Assembly: GCA_040400605.1 (NCBI GenBank)
Contig: JBBAPZ010000009.1
Span: forward strand, 15,604 to 66,506
DNA from: Candidatus Sericytochromatia bacterium
Lineage (GTDB): Bacteria > Cyanobacteriota > Sericytochromatia > S15B-MN24 > JAQBPE01
Length of the DNA stretch: 50,903 nucleotides
Direction of reading: 5' to 3'
Positions 3,274 to 47,703 of this stretch are shown one piece after another. Below the pieces are notes generated by a model. It had not been told where the DNA came from. It searched no databases and saw only the letters and a program-made list of their open reading frames with translations. The translations under genes and the position numbers were made by a program. The stretch's first letter is position 1. Each line of letters begins with the position of its first letter.

Positions 3274-3448
3274 GATCCCAACCGAACGGCAGAGCCGATA
3301 CGGCACCGCGCAATTGTTGGGCAGTCCCCCGCCTGCACTTGCGCACCTCAGGATGAATCGGTCGTGCGTCGGGTACTTGATCCTGAAACCGTCCGGTTCG
3401 CTGATCAGCCTGACCAACCCAGATCACAACGGCTCCCCCTGGAGAACC
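3274..3448 (-). ncRNA. Candidate rod-shaped structured RNA (6S-like architecture)
   Basis: Nested complementary pairs at 3292-3297/3430-3435, 3316-3324/3410-3418 and 3348-3354/3380-3386, with a symmetric 23x23-nt internal bubble. About 175 nt, intergenic. No sequence-level family match recognised. Confidence 0.3.
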
Positions 3449-3523
3449 AGAATGTGACTGACATTTAACAAACAATCAGAGAAATCGATGGATGGCATTC
3501 AACCGCCATTCTTAAAAAACCGA

Positions 3524-3621
3524 CAGCCAAAATTTGATCAACTGGCCATGAGTCGACAAACAACAGGCCACAGGGCACCAAGCCCCGCCTGTACTGAACC
3601 CCCGGCCGAGTGATAAGCTGT
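3524..3621 (-). repeat. Reverse-orientation copy of the intergenic repeat unit
   Basis: A 17-nt exact match, TGATCAAATTTTGGCTG, to 36864-36880. Upstream GCTTGGTGCC and TCACTCGG blocks resemble GCTTGGTACC and CCATTCGG. Confidence 0.65.
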
Positions 3622-13512: not shown

Positions 13513-13559
13513 TCAAACGGGTCGCTACCGACACGCGTTGTTGGCGTCGACCATCGGCA

Positions 13560-13629
13560 GGTGTTTTGCCATTACTGCAGGCGTTTTGTACAGAAGCCGA
13601 GGCGTCACTGTGGGGCGCATAAGCGACGT
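13560..13629 (+). repeat. Copy of the intergenic repeat unit (3' block and junction)
   Basis: TGTTTTGC-N18-GTACA-N11-GTCACTG followed by GGCGCATAAGCG. It lies between convergent genes. Confidence 0.75.
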
Positions 13630-15117: not shown

Positions 15118-16316
15118 GCCTCCACAAGCCTTGCCATCGCGTACTTCTTGCCCACTTGCAAGACGAGGCCCGCATCAGTCAGTTCGAGTGTTTCGTTGGG
15201 GTCGCTCAGGACGCGATCCACCGCATAGCTTGCGCCATCACGCCGCATGAGCCTGACAGCCCCTTCCTTGAGCCTTTCACGGGCCTGGGAGGTGGATGGG
15301 CTGAGTTTGAGCGCCACCATCAACCGTGGGGTGGGCAGGCCCGATTCGAGCGTCACGCCGGGGATGTCGGTATCACCGATCGCCCCACCCCTCAACGCGT
15401 CGGCGATCGCCTGACCGTGGTACAAACGGGTGATGGCCCAAGCCAACTTGAGCTTGGCAGCACGGGGATCCAGGGTTCCTGCCTTCAAGGCGGTCAATGT
15501 CTCCATGATTTCAGCAGCCGAGAGACCGGAGGCCAACGTGTAGTAATCTGGCATTTGGTGATCGGCAATTGCCATGACCTTGTCGTACATGATCTTGGGT
15601 GCATCGGTCAGCGCAATATAATTGTTCAATGACTTCGACATTTTTTCGCTGGTGCCGATGCCCTCGAGCAAGGGGTACAACAAGACAGTCTGTGGGGGCA
15701 TGTCCGCGTTTTCTTGCAGGTGCCGGCCCATGAGGTTGTTGAACTTCTGATCGGTGCCGCCCAATTCCACATCGGCTTGGATCGCGACCGAGTCATAACC
15801 TTGCAGCAAGGGATACAGGAATTCGTGAAGTCCGATGGCATCACCGCGTTCGTAGCGCAAGGCAAAGTTTTCACGTGCCAGCATCTGAGCCACCGTGGCC
15901 TGCCCCATCAAGCGGATGGCAGCAGTCAAATCCATTCCGCCCAGCCACTCACTGTTGCGGTGGATTTCAGCTTTCTCAAGGTCGATCACACGACCCATCT
16001 GCGCGAGATAGGTGCGCGCATTCTCTTCTACTTCCTCGGCGCTCAAGGGCGGACGTGCCTCTTGCTTGCCGGTTGGGTCGCCGATGCGGGCCGTGAAGTC
16101 ACCGATGATGATGACCAATTGATGGCCAGCGTCCTGAAAGCGCCTGAGTGCCCAAAGAACAACCGCATGGCCGATGTGCAGATCCGGCTTGGTGGGGTCA
16201 AAACCAAGCTTGATGCGCAAGGGGCGATCGCCTGAGCGCGCGAGGGCTTGGGCAAGCCCACCTGAAGGGAGCTCTTCCGCACCCAACAATAGATCCGCAA
16301 GTCCCTGAACAACCAT
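15114..16316 (-). CDS. tyrS: Tyrosine--tRNA ligase
   Basis: KLGFDPTKPDLHIGH, YPLLQGYD, ELGGTDQKFN and KMSKS motifs, with a C-terminal S4-like domain. Confidence 0.97.
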   Translation of the reverse strand: MVVQGLADLLLGAEELPSGGLAQALARSGDRPLRIKLGFDPTKPDLHIGHAVVLWALRRFQDAGHQLVIIIGDFTARIGDPTGKQEARPPLSAEEVEENARTYLAQMGRVIDLEKAEIHRNSEWLGGMDLTAAIRLMGQATVAQMLARENFALRYERGDAIGLHEFLYPLLQGYDSVAIQADVELGGTDQKFNNLMGRHLQENADMPPQTVLLYPLLEGIGTSEKMSKSLNNYIALTDAPKIMYDKVMAIADHQMPDYYTLASGLSAAEIMETLTALKAGTLDPRAAKLKLAWAITRLYHGQAIADALRGGAIGDTDIPGVTLESGLPTPRLMVALKLSPSTSQARERLKEGAVRLMRRDGASYAVDRVLSDPNETLELTDAGLVLQVGKKYAMARLVEA

Positions 16317-16504: not shown

Positions 16505-16633
16505 CCGTGCCGTTCGCCCTTCAAGCGCGGCTGCAAGCCTGGATAACGGCCCATGAAACGCTGAGTCAGGGGTAACGGTGTGAGCGATCGCACAGATACC
16601 GTGTGTCCCCCATGAGGGTTCCATTCGTCTTGC
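16505..16633 (+). repeat. Divergent copy of the intergenic repeat unit
   Basis: CCGTGCCGTTCGCCCTTC versus CCGTGCTGTTTGCCATTC. GTGAG and CGTCTTGC follow at near-consensus spacing (56 and 41 nt). Confidence 0.45.
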
Positions 16634-23720: not shown

Positions 23721-23853
23721 GTGCTTGCAAACTGGGCGGCATAGAAAAGTGTCGATTGTTGATCAAATTTTCGGCGTGAATTAAATACAGCAAGTCAGAG
23801 CCTGATGTTTTGAGTTCAACAATTAAGCCTCGAACAGAATCATTGCGTCACTG
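23721..23853 (+). repeat. Copy of the intergenic repeat unit
   Basis: TGATCAAATTTT...TAAATACAGC-N14-TGTTTTGA-N18-GAACA-N10-GTCACTG. Confidence 0.85.
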
Positions 23854-23884
23854 TATGACCTGTTTTTAAGGTCATACGTTTTTT
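23853..23884 (+). terminator. Intrinsic terminator between the ABC operon and fliI
   Basis: GTATGACC-N9-GGTCATAC followed by GTTTTTT. Confidence 0.65.
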
Positions 23885-28634: not shown

Positions 28635-28691
28635 ACCGGGGATTCCCACCTCAGGCAAATGACGCATCCAGTGGGCGTTATCGAGCAAAGC

Positions 28692-28795
28692 GTCGATTGG
28701 CGAGGGAATCGTGGTTGTTAATAAATAACAGCGCGTGAGTGCTTGGTGTTTTGAATCTGCGACGCAGTTTTTGAACAGAAACCTGTCCGTCACTG
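28692..28795 (+). repeat. Copy of the intergenic repeat unit
   Basis: TAAATAACAGC-N14-TGTTTTGA-N18-GAACA-N11-GTCACTG aligns without gaps to 36855-36958. Confidence 0.88.
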
Positions 28796-28819
28796 GATGG
28801 AACGACTGTGTCGAGGGTA

Positions 28820-32344: not shown

Positions 32345-33025
32345 TTATTCCAGCGCTTTGCGCAAATAGTTGCTGATCGAGGTCACCCACTGCTCAGGGG
32401 TATCCATCACAGAAATGCGCCGAATGGCTTTTTGCTCAGTGGTCTTTGCAAACTCAGAAAACTTTACCAACTTGAATGCATCACGGGCAAGTTCACGCCC
32501 AACCCGGCCATCAATCGTTGCCCACTTACCAACCGCACCTTCAAGCACATCGTGCCGTTCCCCAAGCGGAAACAATGCAAACGCGACCTGCCGCGTCTTG
32601 ACAATCTCCTTCACGACATTGAAAGCCTCCGGCGCAGACTGCGCAAGCGCCGTCGCTTGCCGAAACGCAGGCGTAATCACCGCCGCATTATCGGGATGAT
32701 AACGCGCCGATAAATCCGTCGCAAACCGCGCCACCTCCAAAGCCTCCGCCGTCACGACACTCGCATCCAACGCCCGCCGCAATGGCCCTGTTGCATCCGC
32801 ATAATTGCCGTTCTGCTTCATGAAACGTGACACATCCTTCATCGCCTCACCAAAACCAGGACTCAGCGTGCGTGCCGACGTTGCCTGCACCGAACGCCAG
32901 GCATCGCCACCAAGCTTGGCTGCCGCCGCCCGGGACTCACCCATCGGAAGCCGATCAGGCAAAAAATGCGCCGCCGCAAGTTGAACGCGCTGCATCGATG
33001 CTTGAAGTCCGCCCAAAAAGTTCAC
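32345..33025 (-). CDS. Hypothetical alpha-helical protein
   Basis: 226-aa ORF with a GTG start and a strong AAAGGAGG RBS. No recognised family. Confidence 0.75.
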   Translation of the reverse strand: MNFLGGLQASMQRVQLAAAHFLPDRLPMGESRAAAAKLGGDAWRSVQATSARTLSPGFGEAMKDVSRFMKQNGNYADATGPLRRALDASVVTAEALEVARFATDLSARYHPDNAAVITPAFRQATALAQSAPEAFNVVKEIVKTRQVAFALFPLGERHDVLEGAVGKWATIDGRVGRELARDAFKLVKFSEFAKTTEQKAIRRISVMDTPEQWVTSISNYLRKALE

Positions 33026-33121
33026 GGTTACGCCTCCTTTACAGAGATTTATCCGGCCGCATTACCTGAAACTTCTTATCAAAGATTTATCAATCAATTA
33101 AAAATTGATTAATAATCGCGA

Positions 33122-33235
33122 GTCACGATGGCGCAATAAGTGCAAACTGCGCGTTGCAAGCGACGTTAACCCATCGTGTCTGTGCTGTTTGCCATTCGAG
33201 AGATGTCCGTGGCGCTTGGTTCTGTTTGTTGACAC
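33122..33235 (+). repeat. Copy of the intergenic repeat unit (junction and 5' block)
   Basis: GTCACGATGGCGCAATAAG...GCAAAC..TTGCAAGC...GTGCTGTTTGCCATTCG...GTCCGTGGCGCTTGGT...GTTGACAC. It has 17-nt and 16-nt exact matches to the copy at 36748-36958. Confidence 0.88.
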
Positions 33236-33644: not shown

Positions 33645-34045
33645 CGCTTACCACTGACATTCATGCAGATACCCCTTGTCCAGGCTCTTCAAACGATCAC
33701 AGGAACCACTTAGATTGACCGATCGGGCTGCCGGATTCTGGGACCATCATGACGCAAAAAGACCACGCAATGTTGCCAACGGCCGCCGAATGTTAAAAAT
33801 ATTAATTAAACAATCGGTCGATCTGATGGCTGGACGATCACAGAGGGGATTGGGTCAACAGAGCAGGCTGCCTCGGTGTCGCAGAATCGAGAGAACTGTG
33901 CTTCGAGGGTCAATGACCGGTTTACGGACGAACGATACATCCACTGGATGGACGAGCAGACCCAGCGATCGACTGTGTGGGGTTGTTCAGACCTTGCCAG
34001 GCTAACAAAGCCTGGGTACGATCGCAAAGTCGGGAGGTTTACGCG

Positions 34046-36686: not shown

Positions 36687-36730
36687 ATGCTGGTTCAAAA
36701 AGGGCCTGAAACAAGCCCTGTACAGGAACG

Positions 36731-36958
36731 GTAACTACGGAGCAGCCAGCGCAAACGACGGTTTGCAAGCAGCAATCTCTCGTCCCTGTCCGTGCTGTTT
36801 GCCATTCGGAAGGTGGTCCGTGGCGCTTGGTACCACTCAGTTAACACAGAACTCACCAATTGGTGATCAAATTTTGGCTGCTATTAAATAACAGCACGTC
36901 AGTGTCGGGTGTTTTGACCTTGCCGCGTCAGTTTTGAACAAGAACCGATGTGTCACTG
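36731..36958 (+). repeat. Most complete copy of the ~220-bp intergenic repeat unit
   Basis: Contains all blocks in order: GTAACTA, GCAAAC, TTGCAAGC, GTGCTGTTTGCCATTCG, GTCCGTGGCGCTTGGT, TGATCAAATTTTGGCTG, TAAATAACAGC, TGTTTTGA, GAACA, GTCACTG. Confidence 0.9.
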
Positions 36959-37061
36959 TTTGATACGCAGCATGTCACAGAACAGCCAAGCAACAGTCAG
37001 CTGACACAACCAAGCCGTCTGCGAATGCGTTACGATAAGCATCAGGAGGGCCAAAGCGTTC

Positions 37062-40000
37062 ATGCAAGTGACCCAAACAGCGAACGACAGTGAGCTTGCG
37101 CACCCAATGTTGGGCGTCGAGTGGCAGGTAGCGCCCCTGTTTTGCCTGGCTTTGGCTCAAAACGCCGTGCCTTTGATCCAAAGCGTCACGCTCACGAATC
37201 ACACGACTTGCCCGCTGAGTGAGTTAATACTCGAATTGTCCGTCGAACCAAGTCTGGTTGCGTGCAAGCGCCTGCCACTGGCGGTCGAATTGGATGGGAA
37301 CGAGACCACCACGGTGGGGCCACTCGACTTTACGATCCATGCGCGCGCGTTGCTCGGGATTCAAGAACGCGAACCGGTCAGTCTGATGTGGCGCCTGAGC
37401 CAGGGCATGGTCACATTGGCTTGCGGTGAGGTGCCTTTTGTATTGCAGTCGTATGACCATTGGCCGCACAGCCAGGCTTGGCCCGGACTGCTAGGCGCAT
37501 TTGTGCTGCCAAATGAGCCGGTGGTGCGCTCACTGGTACGTCAAGTCTCTGATCACATGCTGCGGCAAGGGCTCAATCACGCACTGGAGGGGTATCAATC
37601 CCGTGACCGGGCGCGGGTGCGTCAATTGGCGATCGCCTGTTACGAAACGCTTGAAACACGCGGTTTGAGCTACGTGACATCGCCACCAAGCTTCGAGCCG
37701 ACCGGGCAAAAAGTCAGACTCCCCGACGTGCTGTGGCGTGATCGGATGGGCTGCTGCCTCGATTTGGCCGTCTTAAACGCCGCCATGCTCGAACAGATGG
37801 GCCTTAACCCCTTGCTGTTCCTGTTGGATGGGCACGCATTGATTGGCGTCTGGCTCGAGGACGACGGCTTTCCTGAGGGCGTCATTCATGCCCTGTCACG
37901 TGTACGAAACGAGATAGCCTTGGAGCGCCTTTTGGTCTGGGACATCACCGCAGCCACCGCTACGCGCGCCCAAGGCTTTGAATCGGCGTGCAAAAGCGCT
38001 TTGCAGCAGTTACAACAAGCCGATACGTTTGACTGCGTGCTGGATGTCAGGGTGTTACGCCGCGTCCCGATTCGTCCCCTTGCCTTGCGAAACCCGATAC
38101 CAGACTTGGCTTCTTCAGACGAAACACCGGAGACACCCACCGGAGACGTGTTAACAGCACCGGTCACATTCGAGGATTTCGGCGTCGGGCAGAGTGACGT
38201 TCAAGATGCCCTTGCGGCCCGTTTCACGCGCTGGCAAGAACAACTTCTGGATTTGGGCTTACGCAATCGCTTGTTGAATGTCACGTTGGGCGCCAAAAGC
38301 ACATTGCCTTTGGCAGTGCCGGAACCCGTTGTGTTGCTGCGTCACCTGTTGCAGAATCAGGCGGAGTTTCTGATACAGCCGGCCGCACGCGGACTGGCCG
38401 TTACACAAGCAAGCATTGCCAATACATTGGCAAGCACGCCCGATGAAGGTATCAACCAATTCGAACGCTTGCTTGTGCGTGGTCACTTGCCAAGCAAGCT
38501 CACGGAACCCGACTGTACGCACCGTTTGCGACATTTGGCGCACCAAGCCCGGGTCATGTGGGAAGAAAGCGGGGCCCACACCCTCTATCTGGCGGTTGGG
38601 TTTTTACGTTGGAGTCAGGGCAATAAAGTAAATTCGGCATCCAGCTTCCTGGCGCCTTTGGCACTGTGCCCCGTCACACTCGGTTTGGACCGCGTCCGTG
38701 GTGGCTATCGTCTGAGTTGGACGGGTGATGACATGGTGCCCAATGTCACGCTTTTTGAGAAACTTCGGCGCGATCACGACATGGAACTGGCAGGCGTCGC
38801 GCAATGGTTGACAGGCGACGAAGGACCCGACCTTGCGCGTTATTTCCGACACATCCGCCAAAGCATCAAACGCCTCGAGCAGTGGGAGGTTTTGGAAGAA
38901 ACCCATCTTGGGCTGTTTTCGTTCAGCAAATTCCTGATGTGGCGGGATCTTGCCGACAACCGGTCCGCACTGTTACAAAACGCGGTCGTTTGGCAGATTG
39001 CGAGCCCGGATGGCGATCGCCCGGCCGTTCCTGACGCCCAAACGCCGCCCGACCCGGAAGAAATCCGCTGTGTACTCGATGCAGATTCAAGTCAACTGGA
39101 AGCAATCCGCGCAGCACTGACAGGCGAATCCTTCGTGTTGCAGGGGCCACCCGGCACCGGCAAAAGTCAGACGATTACAAACATGATTGCTGCTTTGCTC
39201 GGTGACGGAAAACGCGTGCTGTTTGTATCAGAGAAAATGGCTGCCTTGCAGGTGGTATACAAGCGCCTCTGCAATGTCGGCCTCGAGGATTTCTGTCTCA
39301 ACCTGCACCATCAAGGCAGCAACAAAAAGACGCTTTATCAGTCACTCAAAGCAACTTACCAACGTGCCGAGCGCGTGGGACAAGTACCTTGGGAGGAAAG
39401 CATCGCCGAACGTCGAACGCTCACAGGCACACTCAATCAGGTGCATCGCGCTTTGCATCAACCCACGCGCACGGGGTTCAGTGTGCACGAAGCCCTTTTG
39501 CGGCGTATCCAACTGGAGCAAGTCGCGGTGCTCGGTGGTACATTTGCGGGCATTGAGCATTGGGATGCCGCACGCTGGCTTGAGACACTGCGGCTTGTTG
39601 CCGCGTTTTTTGAGCGCGCGCGCGATGTCTGGCCCATTGCAACCAACCCGTGGCGCGGCTTCAAGCCGGGTGCCTGGCATGCCCCTGTCAGGTTCGAACT
39701 GGAAAACCTGCTTGAGCGGATACCAATGCTTGTGACCACCCTCACGACGATCGAAACACGTTGTTGGGAATTGCTTGAACAAAAAGATACCCCAACACAA
39801 CAAATCCTCAGGGCTGGGGTCATTCTGGCCGGGCAACTGGCGCAGGGGGTCATACCTATTGGCGCATGCGATCCCGCCTGGCCTGAATGGCGCGCCAGGG
39901 GCGAAGCGTTCGTGCGTCTCGATGAGGAGGTGGGGCAGCTTCGCGCAGCGCTCTTGCGCGACTGGCCCATCACCCTCACAAGCCTGGATGAGGGCAATCT

Positions 40001-42911
40001 CCTGGCACGTTTCAAACGCGGGCAAAAAGCGCCGACCTGGCTACACTGGCTGACCCTGCGTGGTGTCAGGCGCACGCTGGACGCGCTGAAACCCGGGGCA
40101 TCCCTTCGCGATGACGACCGTTTGGATGTGCTGATTCGTCTGCAAACGTTGCGCGCGCGAACGCAACAACTGGATGACATGCGAGGGGGCTTGTGGGCGA
40201 TCCTCGAATTGGCGCCCGACGCGGCGCATGACACGTTCACCCGGCGTTTTCACGCAGTTTGCGAGGCATTGACGCCCCATGAGGGTTTGGGGGAATGGGC
40301 TTTTGCGATCGCCAGGGCAGTGGCCGACAAGCGGGCCGGCAACGGAAAACACTGGCACGAGCTGTGTGAAGGGCTCAAGCAGTATCAGCAGGCTGACCAC
40401 GAATGGACGGAATTGATAACACGCCTGCGGGTCATTCTAGGCTTGGGCGATGGAAATGACTGGCCATCACCTGAGCCAGCCAACCCCCGCGAGGCGCTGC
40501 TTGCGATTACCCAGCGCCTGACACCCGCTTTATCCGGTATGCAGGCGTGGTGCTTTTATCAGCAAACCTGTCAGGAGTTGGCACAATCGGGCCTTGGTTG
40601 GTTGGTTGCGGCCCACGTGGACTCGCGGCTCCCAAACACTTTTCGGCCCGAATGCGTCGAACGTGGCATGCTGGATGCCTGGCTCAAGGGGCAGTTGGCG
40701 GAAAACGCCGTTCTCGCCGGTTTTTATGGTCCTGAGTTCGAACGCGTCGCGCAACGGTTCGCAGCCTGTGATGCAGATATGCTGATGCTGGCTCGGCGTT
40801 GGATCATTGCGCAACTGGAAGCCAGATTACCCCAGGCGCGTCAAGACGTGGCGGAACGGTCCGAGCCTGGTTTGCTCATGCGTGAGGCAGCCAAAAAAAC
40901 GCGGCAAATGCCGCTTCGGATGGGCTTAAGCAAGATGCCCCATCTCATCGCACGTCTCAAACCCTGTTTTTTGATGTCACCTTTGTCGGTTGCGCAGTAT
41001 TTGCCAGCAGGGGATACGCCTTTCGATGTCGTCATTTTTGATGAGGCGTCTCAAATCGGCACCCACGACGCGATTGGGGCGATCGCCCGCGGGCGTCAGG
41101 TCATCATCGTGGGCGACAGTCAGCAACTGCCTCCCACGCGTTTCTTCCATCGCAAAAACGATGCTGACGCCCTGCCGGATGATTGTGATGTCATTGAACT
41201 GGAAAGCATTCTGGATGAAGCGGTGGCCAAGGAGTTACCCGTCCGCACGCTGAATTGGCATTATCGTTCGCGGCATGATGATCTCATTGCTTTCAGCAAC
41301 CGCTATCACTACGACAACCGTCTGCAAATTTTTCCACCGGCCGCTCGTCACGTGGGTGATCGTGGGGTCAAATGGCACCACGTTCCCGAGGGCGTTTACC
41401 TTGGCAAACACGCAGACGAAGAGGCCGAAGCGGGAACTAACCCCAGCGAGGCAGCGGCGTTGGTCACGCACCTGCTCGATGCGTTGAGACAGACACCACC
41501 CGGCCAACGCAGCTTCGGCGTGGTGACCTTTAACCTGGCACAACAGATGTTGATTTTGGAACTGCTGGAAGAAGCGCGGGCGAACGACCCCAGCCTGGAA
41601 GACCACTTTCGTGGATCCGAGGGACTCTTCGTCAAAAATCTGGAAAATGTACAAGGGGATGAGCGGGATGTGGTCTACTTCAGTGTTTGCTATGCGCCGG
41701 ATCGCCGTGGTCGCATGCGCATGGCGTTCGGCCCGCTTGGAATGAGCGGGGGCGAACGGCGTCTCAATGTGGCCATTACCCGTGCACGGGACGCGCTGCA
41801 CGTGTTTTCGAGCATCGATGCCCAGGCAATCGATCTCAACCGCGCAGGCAGTGTGGGCGCGCGACACCTCAAAGCGTTTCTACGCTTTGCTGCGGCTTGC
41901 ACCCAAGCCAGCGAGCAGCCGCCACCCGCCAGCGAAAGCGCTCACCCTTTGATCGCCTCGCTGCAAGATGCCTTGCAACAAGCGGGTTATCTTGTCGACA
42001 CAGCCGTTGGAACGGGACAATACCGCATGGCGCTGGCAATCAGGCATCCGAAACGTCCCGGGTCTTACGCCCTCGGCATCGAAGTTGATGCGCCACCAAC
42101 CATGGATGTATTCCCGTGTCGTGATCACGAACGCATCCGGCCCACTTTGCTGGCTGCGCTGGGTTGGAAGCGCCAGCGGGTCTTGGCCTTATCTTGGTGG
42201 TTGGACCGGAGCGGACAATGGCAACGCCTGACACGCGCGCTGGATGACGCGCTTGACGCACCCCTCGATGACACGGTGATGGCAGGACCTGCGCTTGTCG
42301 TTGAAGATACCGTGCCCGCATCCGAGACCGCCAGTACGCCACACCAAAGCCCAGAACCGCCCATCAAGCCCTATTCACGTTACGCGTGGCCAACGCCCGG
42401 GCAACCCATTTCTACACTGGCAACAATTGATGCGGCCGAGTGGCAAGACCTCATTTGCGACGTGGTGCATCTGGAAGGACCCATCCCTGATAAACTCCTG
42501 AGCAAGCGAGTGGCTGAGCTGTTTCAGTTGCCCCGTGTGACGGAGGCCCTGACAAAACGCATCCAATCAGCGATCGCCGCACTGCTGGACGCGGATCGCA
42601 TCCAACATCACGAACAGATTTACTGGTCACCAACACTGCCCCCCCGCAGTATGACCCGCTGTCGGGTTGGCGAACGGGATGCGGGTTTTTGGGTGGCAGA
42701 AGAACTGGCCTTGTTACTCGAGTGGGTATTGAACCACAATGTCGCCGTCACACCGGAGGTTGCAACCAAAGAGGTTGCGCGCTTGATGGGCCTGCACCGC
42801 CCAAATCGTCACGCCGTCGAAGCGGTGCAAAAAGCGATGGGCGTATTGCTCACGCGGGGTGCCGCCCATCTTGGCGACGACGGTCAGTGGGTTGGGCAAT
42901 CCCGGTCTTGA
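37062..42911 (+). CDS. DUF4011 / SF1 (Upf1-like) helicase / Vsr-like / DUF3320 multidomain protein (Hhe-like) with an N-terminal transglutaminase-like domain
   Basis: WQEQLLDLGLRNRLLN and EESGAHTLYLAVGFLRW (DUF4011). DADSSQ, QGPPGTGKSQT, FDEASQ, GDSQQLPP, HYRSR, ENVQGDERD and RRLNVAITRAR (SF1). GIEVD..RD..R...LGW (Vsr-like). VVHLEGPI (DUF3320-like). N-terminal GCCLD...GHA. Confidence 0.92.
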   Translation: MQVTQTANDSELAHPMLGVEWQVAPLFCLALAQNAVPLIQSVTLTNHTTCPLSELILELSVEPSLVACKRLPLAVELDGNETTTVGPLDFTIHARALLGIQEREPVSLMWRLSQGMVTLACGEVPFVLQSYDHWPHSQAWPGLLGAFVLPNEPVVRSLVRQVSDHMLRQGLNHALEGYQSRDRARVRQLAIACYETLETRGLSYVTSPPSFEPTGQKVRLPDVLWRDRMGCCLDLAVLNAAMLEQMGLNPLLFLLDGHALIGVWLEDDGFPEGVIHALSRVRNEIALERLLVWDITAATATRAQGFESACKSALQQLQQADTFDCVLDVRVLRRVPIRPLALRNPIPDLASSDETPETPTGDVLTAPVTFEDFGVGQSDVQDALAARFTRWQEQLLDLGLRNRLLNVTLGAKSTLPLAVPEPVVLLRHLLQNQAEFLIQPAARGLAVTQASIANTLASTPDEGINQFERLLVRGHLPSKLTEPDCTHRLRHLAHQARVMWEESGAHTLYLAVGFLRWSQGNKVNSASSFLAPLALCPVTLGLDRVRGGYRLSWTGDDMVPNVTLFEKLRRDHDMELAGVAQWLTGDEGPDLARYFRHIRQSIKRLEQWEVLEETHLGLFSFSKFLMWRDLADNRSALLQNAVVWQIASPDGDRPAVPDAQTPPDPEEIRCVLDADSSQLEAIRAALTGESFVLQGPPGTGKSQTITNMIAALLGDGKRVLFVSEKMAALQVVYKRLCNVGLEDFCLNLHHQGSNKKTLYQSLKATYQRAERVGQVPWEESIAERRTLTGTLNQVHRALHQPTRTGFSVHEALLRRIQLEQVAVLGGTFAGIEHWDAARWLETLRLVAAFFERARDVWPIATNPWRGFKPGAWHAPVRFELENLLERIPMLVTTLTTIETRCWELLEQKDTPTQQILRAGVILAGQLAQGVIPIGACDPAWPEWRARGEAFVRLDEEVGQLRAALLRDWPITLTSLDEGNLLARFKRGQKAPTWLHWLTLRGVRRTLDALKPGASLRDDDRLDVLIRLQTLRARTQQLDDMRGGLWAILELAPDAAHDTFTRRFHAVCEALTPHEGLGEWAFAIARAVADKRAGNGKHWHELCEGLKQYQQADHEWTELITRLRVILGLGDGNDWPSPEPANPREALLAITQRLTPALSGMQAWCFYQQTCQELAQSGLGWLVAAHVDSRLPNTFRPECVERGMLDAWLKGQLAENAVLAGFYGPEFERVAQRFAACDADMLMLARRWIIAQLEARLPQARQDVAERSEPGLLMREAAKKTRQMPLRMGLSKMPHLIARLKPCFLMSPLSVAQYLPAGDTPFDVVIFDEASQIGTHDAIGAIARGRQVIIVGDSQQLPPTRFFHRKNDADALPDDCDVIELESILDEAVAKELPVRTLNWHYRSRHDDLIAFSNRYHYDNRLQIFPPAARHVGDRGVKWHHVPEGVYLGKHADEEAEAGTNPSEAAALVTHLLDALRQTPPGQRSFGVVTFNLAQQMLILELLEEARANDPSLEDHFRGSEGLFVKNLENVQGDERDVVYFSVCYAPDRRGRMRMAFGPLGMSGGERRLNVAITRARDALHVFSSIDAQAIDLNRAGSVGARHLKAFLRFAAACTQASEQPPPASESAHPLIASLQDALQQAGYLVDTAVGTGQYRMALAIRHPKRPGSYALGIEVDAPPTMDVFPCRDHERIRPTLLAALGWKRQRVLALSWWLDRSGQWQRLTRALDDALDAPLDDTVMAGPALVVEDTVPASETASTPHQSPEPPIKPYSRYAWPTPGQPISTLATIDAAEWQDLICDVVHLEGPIPDKLLSKRVAELFQLPRVTEALTKRIQSAIAALLDADRIQHHEQIYWSPTLPPRSMTRCRVGERDAGFWVAEELALLLEWVLNHNVAVTPEVATKEVARLMGLHRPNRHAVEAVQKAMGVLLTRGAAHLGDDGQWVGQSRS

Positions 42912-44594: not shown

Positions 44595-44716
44595 CCAAAA
44601 CAGGCGGTCGTTGGTTGATGGCAACAAGTCATGACCACCAGGGCATCACTTGGTCGATGAAAAACCTGACGGGCTGATTCGGCGCCTAGGTGCAGGAAAC
44701 CGAAACAAACGGCAAA
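44595..44716 (-). repeat. Divergent reverse-orientation copy of the intergenic repeat unit
   Basis: Minus strand reads TTTGCCGTTTG, 56 nt, GTGAT, exactly 42 nt, TGTTTTGG. Confidence 0.45.
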
Positions 44717-44887
44717 TCGGGCACTTGTTTGATAGCAAGACGTGACCAATGGATGCAAAGCCGACCGCAGGAGGAGTTTAGGCGACATCAGGGTCAAGCC
44801 AAGGCGACTGGCAGCGCTTGTGTCTGTGGCAGAAACCCTTAGGATCACGCGTTGAAGGGTCAGCATAACCACGTTGAGGAGGGCCAG

Positions 44888-46129: not shown

Positions 46130-46659
46130 CCGTGTCCGCCATCCCTGACCCAATCCCACCTGCTGGCAAACTAGAGGCATGGAACACCGACCCAGTCATG
46201 AACCCAATCAGGCGGCGACGCACCGGTGAAGTAACTGAATAGAAGCAAGCGAAACGCCCCCGGAGGGTTAGGGCCGATTCCAAGCTGAACAGTACTTCGG
46301 CAAGTAAGATGGTTCAACCGCCAAGAGCAGTAACCTGGGGTGGGCCCGGTCGCCTGTGGTATCCCACCCGTCTTCGCAAGCGGCGTTCGGGCGGGAGCCC
46401 TCCTCTGGCGCCAGCCACTGTCAGTATCCAACGATTGGCGCCCGAGATTATTCAGATGTATTGAAACAGCATCCGCTTGTGCTTGCTGCGCAATGCTTAC
46501 CCGGCGAATGGTTACCTCTTTAATTCTTTTTTACATTTCCTTACTATTTTAAGCAAGTTATGTGCGGTCCGATGAGATAAAAAGCCCGATGGAACGATGC
46601 CGTTGTTTGTTACGCGAAGCGTATTTTGGGGGCTAGGCGGTGTGTGAGGTCACCCGACT

Positions 46660-47193
46660 TTGAAAGGAGATCTGAAGGTGGTAGAACTTGGTGGTTTGGG
46701 AAGCAATTCGTCCAGGGCTTATGCCATTGATGGAAGTGGATTTGAGCGAGTTGGCAAAGGTGAAGCCGCCGCGGCCAAAGCAGTAACAAGTGCCAAAGGA
46801 AATTCGCAGGACGATCTGGTTGTCGTGGTTGGGCAAGATGTCTACGCTGCGACGTCAAAACAGATTAAGGTGGATCGGGCAAAAGATGCCCCGCCCCCGC
46901 GATTCGACTAATCGATGGTTATCAGGACCAAGTCCGGTGAGAGCCTGGCTGGCGTGGTGAAGCTGTTTGATACCGAAGCGTCAGACATCATCAACAGGCG
47001 GGAGGCTGCCAAGGCGCGAGAACAACGAATCAAGACCACTAAACCGTTTGTCATTGTGGCCGCCGTTGCAGCGCTCGGGGGAGCCGTCGTGGGTTGGACG
47101 GTGCCAGCACTCAGCGGAGCGGCCGGCCTCGTAGCGGCAATCGGTGCTGCAAGCGTTTACGGTCTTGCGAGATACCAAGAAGGTATATTTTGA
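46660..47193 (+). pseudogene. Hypothetical membrane protein split by an in-frame TAA (or two small ORFs)
   Basis: ORFs 46660-46911 and 46915-47193 are in the same frame, separated only by TAA-TCG. The C-terminus has two hydrophobic helices. Confidence 0.5.
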
Positions 47194-47250
47194 CTTCGAA
47201 TACCTCCAGACTTCTGCACGGTAACCGCTGAAATCAAGTAAAGACGGCAA

Positions 47251-47272
47251 AGTGCCTCATCACTGAGGCACT
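47251..47272. terminator. Perfect hairpin downstream of the split ORF
   Basis: AGTGCCTCA-TCAC-TGAGGCACT, a 9-bp stem. The U-tract is weak. Confidence 0.4.
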
Positions 47273-47299
47273 ACATTTGGCATCTTTTGGCGAATTAGT

Positions 47300-47703
47300 C
47301 AGAGATTTCGCCCTAGGCAACTGAAAGGCGCCTGGCTGGATTATTAGGCGCCTCAAGGGTTTGAGACGAATAATCTATTCTTTACCTGGCGTGCTATGAG
47401 AGCCTGGCAGTGGGCAACGGCTTGAGATGGGTGCAGCTGTTCGACCTGATGGCTTCCGACGACCCGTGATGTCTTCTCGTCACGTGGGTCGCGCAAACTC
47501 GTCGCTTACGGGGACTCAAACAGTGCCAGGCGCTGATCGCGTGCCTTCGAACCTGTGTCCCCGTCGGAATGCCTAATGGTCTCAATGCTTGCATCCATCC
47601 ACGCCATTAAACAGGGACGATGCTTGTGTCTATGGGTACGGTGTTACAGGCTGCCGTGAGTTGTCGCGTGAAGGGTCGAAATCAACGCGGGGCGAAATCT
47701 CTG
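47300..47703. repeat. 404-bp non-coding segment bounded by a perfect 14-bp inverted repeat
   Basis: CAGAGATTTCGCCC (47300-47313) and GGGCGAAATCTCTG (47690-47703). Confidence 0.5.

Follow-up and report, generated by a model that had tools for sequence, protein, structure and literature searches.

Targeted insertion near promoters has been described for Mutator-like elements, and those of the p-MULT 3/4 type (TnGBS, ISLre2 and ISKra4) land 15–17 bp upstream of the sigma-A -35 box (PMC3942029). Elements of the IS66 family have GTAAGC(G) termini and an 8-bp target duplication, and passages of a further source list repeats of 8 nt for IS66 and of the form TNA for IS630 (PMC10017437). Among short non-coding repeats, RUP, Correia/NEMIS and ERIC are IS630-related MITEs (PMC2229807). 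On the host side, TTAA is the core word of the CtrA box, TTAA-N7-TTAA, which is located upstream of genes (PMC11264516), and of the cyanobacterial Pho box, PyTTAAPyPyT/A (PMC10976474). No precedent for promoter targeting by IS66 was found in the literature searched, which consisted mostly of open-access journals.

Sericytochromatia are a non-photosynthetic class within Cyanobacteriota. The assembly analysed here comprises 3.71 Mb and is 94.6% complete, and the window, the whole stretch of 50,903 nucleotides that was studied, corresponds to positions 15604–66506 of contig C9. The region 36720–36961 of the window is an old MITE of family A inserted in the left end of a MITE of family B, and the two families are unrelated. 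The locus is composed of three parts:

36720–36730, + strand: left terminus of family B, severed by the insertion of A (9 of 11 bases agree with the B left end).
36731–36845, + strand: family A MITE with IS66-type ends and without an array (E 4.8e-20, model positions 1–111, array score -5.0).
36846–36961, + strand: degraded duplication at 36846–36853, followed by the rest of the family B MITE (E 3.7e-27).

A sequence-only reading had treated this region as the most complete copy of one 220-bp repeat. When A and one duplication were excised, the match to B grew from model positions 12–123 to 3–123 and its score rose from 95.6 to 104.6 bits, the best among 8 excisions tried; as B is restored in this way, the 220-bp unit is a nested insertion. 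A genome search with the 300-bp focal stretch returned matches to either the 5' or the 3' half, and a stretch of the window matched in none of 40 related genomes. The repeat as first described is an ordinary nested MITE pair. Directly downstream, at 37062–42911, a 1949-aa DUF4011 helicase with a REase_MTES_1575 domain is encoded, which is possibly defence-related.

Copies were counted at E<0.01 with full-length profiles (112 positions for A), and the reversed genome served as control. Family A (about 113 bp, non-coding) has 95 copies and family B (about 119 bp, non-coding) has 244, with none of either in the reversed genome; the profile scan that had been proposed returned real matches, and the expectation of hundreds of copies per genome was borne out. 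The intergenic location held as well, since called genes, with coordinates and orientations taken from a codon model built in this analysis, were overlapped by only 3 of 85 A and 3 of 227 B copies. The motif TAAATAACAGC-N14-TGTTTTGA-N18-GAACA-N11-GTCACTG is present in the window as described, and the exact matches in the 5' half were located at 33182/36792 (17 nt) and 33205/36816 (16 nt). Spacer lengths are indeed fixed, at 14 in 137, 18 in 127 and 11 in 145 of 148 copies.

Fixed spacers and hundreds of intergenic copies would speak for one structured RNA or multi-site protein-binding element of 220 bp, as the sequence-only reading had proposed among other options, and this is very improbable in view of the other results. 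A lies directly 5' of B in one of the 95 copies, at the focal locus alone. The conserved blocks, said to stand out from variable spacers, are hardly more conserved than these (column identity 0.765 against 0.728 in 148 copies), which leaves multi-site protein binding unsupported as the reason for the internal spacing. Rfam, where a match had been named as removing the novelty, returned 0 matches, and RNAalifold predicted 0 pairs from 21 copies per family. In profile searches of the 46 other genomes of the class, family A was not found (0/46) and family B gave one weak, partial match (E 1e-4, inside a gene), taken as chance. In addition, target duplications and nesting show mobility, and the last of the three interpretations proposed, an ancient non-autonomous mobile element, was correct. 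Fixed spacing is to be expected if the copies descend from a single short element and have gained few indels. A real pattern of several putative protein-binding sites does exist, and it lies outside the element, in host DNA adjoining family A.

Conservation of family A stops sharply at inverted ends, GTAAG...CTTAC, with GTAAGCATGG and GTAAGCGAAT at the ends of the profile. An 8-bp target duplication is indicated by a flank identity of 0.57 compared with 0.26 in permuted flanks (n=68), and at least 6 of 8 bases match in 30 of the 68 copies. Where A is nested in other repeats, a gain of 8 bp was found in 2 of 4 empty sites, the others giving -3 and -7. Inverted ends and target duplications had been reported as missing from the repeat; in fact inverted ends are present in both families, and a duplication in A. 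Reference IS66 elements, taken from genomes G444, G544, G402 and G529, start with GTAAGCG or GTAACCG and make 8-bp duplications (8/8), and TnpB-bearing elements open with one or the other of these words. The likeness to A in both features argues for A being IS66-derived, a putative class assignment by ends and duplication only, as tnpA-tnpB-tnpC are absent. The copies are decayed to 70% identity to the consensus. Metagenomes gave 0 matches to the A motif, and a plasmid search gave no match to A or B. Outside the focal locus, family A and its surroundings are represented in the window by the following features:

33122–33233, + strand: family A copy at an array site (E 1.2e-20, array score 13.4).
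33076–33112, - strand: host array of four TTAA-like boxes at 33076, 33087, 33098 and 33109 (11-bp period), in register with the left end of A.
33049–33057, - strand: predicted sigma-28-like -10 box in the flank sequence, ahead of the gene at 32345–32995 (- strand).
46231–46500, - strand: third A copy, missed by the sequence-only reading, split by about 157 bp of inserted sequence (duplication 7/8).

Beside the third copy, loose TTAA/TTAC boxes are found at about 46520–46552, ahead of the gene at 46660 (+ strand).

Family A shows an oriented, phase-locked placement beside host TTAA arrays. On its left flank, outside the duplication, TTAA occurs at -46, -35, -24 and -13 in 17, 15, 19 and 8 of 76 copies; the boxes start 10, 21, 32 and 43 bp from the left end, and this phase lock is one-sided, the right flank being flat with no TTAA phase. 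In a training-free test, 59 of 104 TTAA words on the left flank fell in one class modulo 11, and the right side of A as well as families B, F0 and F2 were all flat. With a profile trained on A left flanks and a match defined as a score above 9 bits, an array was found at 32 of 78 left ends compared with 1 of 78 right ends, at 0/162 and 0/185 ends of B and at 0.105% of random intergenic sites. A profile built from arrays without A matched at 26 of 78 copies at shift 0, at 15 at -11, at 7 at +11 and at 3 or fewer elsewhere, in a test that is partly independent only, as it was the A-trained profile that had first picked out these arrays. The remaining 46 of 78 copies, including the focal one, have no in-register array.

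The constant offset from the A end would be expected if the arrays were part of a larger composite element amplified together with A. However, A is separated from the array by the 8-bp duplication, whose sequence varies among copies (pairwise identity 0.26), the flanks are unrelated outside TTAA (29% identity), and 151 of the 184 array loci in this genome are without A, which is present at 33; a composite origin is thus extremely improbable.

Selection after random insertion, with in-register copies kept as an upstream part of the promoter, is improbable as well. In its favour, the targets of A are predicted promoter regions, and MITEs can carry regulatory motifs (PMC2229807). The elements are also retained in a related lineage, where they were found at the same sites of the window in 4 runs from 3 studies; a contig spanning 31797–38097 differs there at 260 positions and by 8 gaps among the matches listed, and the B copy at 23738 shows an 8-bp deletion in addition to at least 8 substitutions. 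However, such co-option would need an about 400-fold differential retention (41% vs 0.1%), whereas B, F0 and F2 persist everywhere without array bias. Moreover, array and non-array copies of A are equally decayed, with 68.5 and 65.7 bits and a duplication remnant of 4.85 and 4.58 of 8, respectively.

Spaced at 11 bp, TTAA words give a helical-repeat signal. The A transposase might have recognised the arrays themselves, as DNA that is phased and bendable, without a host protein, with an asymmetric transpososome setting the orientation. In 15 copies of an unrelated IS66, a weak phased A/T preference was found on both flanks (about 60% of the left ones have T at 24 and A at 27), and this two-sided periodicity suggests that DNA shape alone may guide IS66 insertion. 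Yet the reference signal is weak, two-sided and 3 bp out of phase with that of A, and the right flank of A has no TTAA phase. In addition, A sits almost always on the gene-distal side of the array, although TTAA is palindromic. Direct reading of DNA shape is a serious candidate but an unlikely one.

The preferred reading is that A was placed beside the arrays by a lost IS66 transposase, which a regulator of the host or a promoter complex bound there would have drawn in, with a probability of about 0.6. It builds on the arrays being host promoter features, a function predicted from the following observations. Genome-wide, 238 TTAA triples have a spacing of 11, compared with 27–60 at spacings of 9, 10, 12 and 13, and in the TTAA-N7-TTAA geometry there are 128 pairs at spacing 11 compared with 12–47 at other spacings. 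Array matches are intergenic in 268 of 272 cases, and 205 of 272 precede a gene on the same strand. Genes beside A point away from its left end in 63 of 82 cases, where 56% would be expected. Of 46 other genomes of the class, 33 contain the exact TTAA triple; it stands well above the reversed control in family f6 and near the control in the AT-rich f7. A GATA motif lies 67–70 bp from A in 17 of 39 sites and often reads GCCGATA, the sigma-28 -10 consensus (PMC12784957), and FliA is encoded in the genome. As a point against, there are 23–25 bp between the last TTAA box and the -10 box here, and not 19 bp as in the P. aeruginosa sigma-28 promoter (PMC12784957). A lipobox was found in 12 of 39 downstream genes, compared with 178 of 2862 genes, and when 37 downstream proteins were scanned against Pfam, 13 matched, mostly hydrolases, peptidases and peptidoglycan-binding proteins, and 24 had no match.

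The arrays share the core word, the 11-bp geometry and the gene-upstream position with the CtrA box and the core word with the Pho box. They differ from both in that three or four boxes stand in a row, and in a non-photosynthetic class. Nine candidate OmpR-type regulators scored above the cut-off; of four that were scanned, one was RpaB and none exceeded the PhoB or CtrA cut-offs. The RpaB orthologue (L468, contig C28:14415–15155) is above its NCBIfam cut-off in this non-photosynthetic lineage.

In the recruitment reading, both A and B would have been copied in trans by insertion sequences since lost from the assembly, and would then have decayed. The TTAA arrays would serve as operators for a regulator of the OmpR/PhoB type, in promoters of the sigma-28 type that drive genes for lipoproteins and secreted hydrolases, and contact with the array-bound complex would put A just upstream of the operator, where promoter and gene stay intact. 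That the regulator or promoter complex on the array drew in the IS66 transpososome is rather probable. The copies of A that have no in-register array, and the search for a cognate transposase that found none, count against it. A more specific version can be put forward only tentatively, at slightly less than even odds: an IS66 lineage, guided by protein to one host regulon, would dock on an OmpR-type regulator or a sigma-28 promoter complex at TTAA-N7 arrays and insert upstream of genes for lipoproteins and secreted hydrolases, in fixed orientation and helical phase, its fossils would map a conserved promoter class of Sericytochromatia, and B would mark a duplication-free transposase with IS630-like ends.

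Family A appears to be promoter-targeted like TnGBS, ISLre2 and ISKra4, at sites whose promoter function is predicted. In contrast to p-MULT 3/4 elements, it has IS66-type ends, is phased on an 11-bp TTAA array and lies about 66–73 bp from the sigma-28-like -10 box. It shares termini and duplication length with IS66, but in reference IS66 copies TTAA has no fixed phase on either side (at most 2/15 at any offset), whereas A is one-sided, 113 bp long and non-coding.

No autonomous partner with A or B ends was found in the 94.6% complete assembly or among transposase loci from relatives, and the search for a full-length copy beside a transposase, which had been suggested, returned none in the assembly. 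All long elements bounded by A or B ends proved to be chance pairs or to contain nothing but nested MITEs. The genome's own IS66 on contig C42 has ends that differ from those of A. This IS66-like element (L072, C42:6180–7990; also on C146, C48 and C37) has non-GTAA ends, a shortened tnpC and end fragments on several contigs. Searches for DDE_3 and DDE_5 in this genome gave no match, and none of the four DDE_Tnp_1 loci had A- or B-like end pairs in the genome-wide scan. Many of the small contigs among C80–C174 look foreign by their proteins, and these contigs carry three of the four DDE_Tnp_1 matches. From six loci in the class, no full IS66 copies with both ends were recovered.

Family B poses a second oddity, as it inserts without target duplication, unlike the IS630 elements that share its ends. 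Besides the focal copy, it is represented in the window by these copies:

1621–1738, + strand: family B copy (E 9.3e-19).
13558–13611, + strand: 3' fragment of family B (E 2.6e-6).
23738–23858, + strand: family B copy inserted in a decayed F2 copy (E 2.2e-20).
28680–28800, + strand: family B copy (E 5.7e-25).
3494–3551, - strand: weak, insecure B fragment (E 0.1).

Thus, of the copies that had been listed as clear, those on the + strand held but divide between the families, with 33122 belonging to A and 1640, 13560, 23721 and 28692 to B; at 3524–3621 on the - strand, next to an F0 copy, only a doubtful B fragment (E 0.1) remained. Conservation of B stops sharply at its inverted ends, ATACAG...CTGTAT, and the copies are decayed to 75% identity to the consensus, with no column at 95% or above; both families look unconstrained. 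A duplication signal was absent at any length from 1 to 12 (n=151). Twelve of 170 copies lie inside other repeats, and the net gain is exactly ATAC...GTAT in 8 of these 12, which equals the net gain of a TA-duplicating element; the remaining 4 sites gave +1, +1, -1 and -11. Under stricter registration, 7 of 15 rows were registered, all with overlap 0, and 8 were unregistered. The flanks follow RYB^VRY, and the two flanking bases vary independently. The junction is T^A in 20 of 151 copies only, in which B differs from IS630 MITEs, with which it shares being short and non-coding; the left base is G in 62, T in 53, C in 23 and A in 13 copies, with a T-to-G background of 6%. The host consensus is T^A at 3 of 7 registered nested sites, and original TA targets for B therefore keep some standing.

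The ends (A)TAC...GTA(T) are common to B and DDE_3 elements in L283, L268, G241 and G273, with only 4 terminal bases alike, and B has the ends of IS630 but not the TA/TNA duplication. In ATACC-ended IS630 elements of Cyanobacteriota the flanks read TN and NA, with TNA repeats in 10 of 10 copies from G273 and 5 of 10 from G241. In the ATACC-ended IS630 of G241 (L328–L337), the flanking N differs between the two sides in 5 of 10 copies, which could reflect recombination between copies or a carried flanking base. Among IS4-related groups, passages of one source contained no end that matches B (PMC2266710). Between convergent genes, 88 of 224 B copies are found, compared with 17% of intergenic bases, as expected for harmless sites.

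A related family, B2 (L227, contig C32:2382–2493), comprises 7 younger copies with B-like ends and T^A in 3 of 7. One of the seven lies within a B copy, and its junction is clean. B2 gave 3 weak matches in 400 genomes, all within genes, and five 25-bp matches to plasmids at E 3. Its end was matched twice in metagenomes, both times at 99.9% identity to contig C32, and these near-identical matches are not independent. Viral contigs returned 69 matches, of which 6 had a second end-like word (4.4 expected) and all were in ORFs.

In total, 13 profiled families account for 740 matches over 81 kb genome-wide, and repeat elements often nest in one another. TTAA-like flanks are seen in F2, and F0 shows a duplication of about 9–10 bp. 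The following copies are located in the window:

1376–1541, + strand: F2 copy (141 matches genome-wide).
44603–44748, + strand: F2 copy.
33711–33833, - strand: F0 copy (127 matches genome-wide).
3387–3495, - strand: F0 copy.
47300–47595, + strand: F8 copy (17 matches).
47206–47300: F14 copy.
46323–46404: F26 copy.

The weak copies that had been assigned to the repeat belong to these families instead: 1349–1490 and 44595–44716 are F2, 33790–33955 overlaps F0 and 47490–47665 is F8, whereas no family matched 16505–16633.

The commonest 8-mer in contigs of at least 10 kb is HIP1 (GCGATCGC), with 1484 occurrences observed and 217 expected. Close HIP1 pairs were found in 23 of 26 other genomes of the same order and, outside the order, in 4 of 20 with one each; the reversed HIP1 used as control contains CTAG and is a weak control. 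HIP1 is absent in Gloeobacterales, and Sericytochromatia are unmentioned in the passages concerned (PMC13756078). The distribution may bear on the origin of HIP1. An insertion of B into HIP1 with AT duplicated was considered and rejected, as empty sites leave no extra bases.

The MITEs themselves are ordinary, and what is new here is the targeting of A to promoter arrays, followed by the missing duplication of B. The latter bears on whether IS630-like elements bring their terminal A/T with them or take it from the target. If placement of A was host-guided, promoter targeting would extend to a second DDE family, and the system might serve as a tool for safe-site integration. For the organism, the fossils of A expose a large promoter class of 184 array loci in a poorly known sister class of cyanobacteria, and this TTAA/sigma-28-like class, whose members precede genes for lipoproteins and secreted hydrolases, may constitute a lifestyle regulon.
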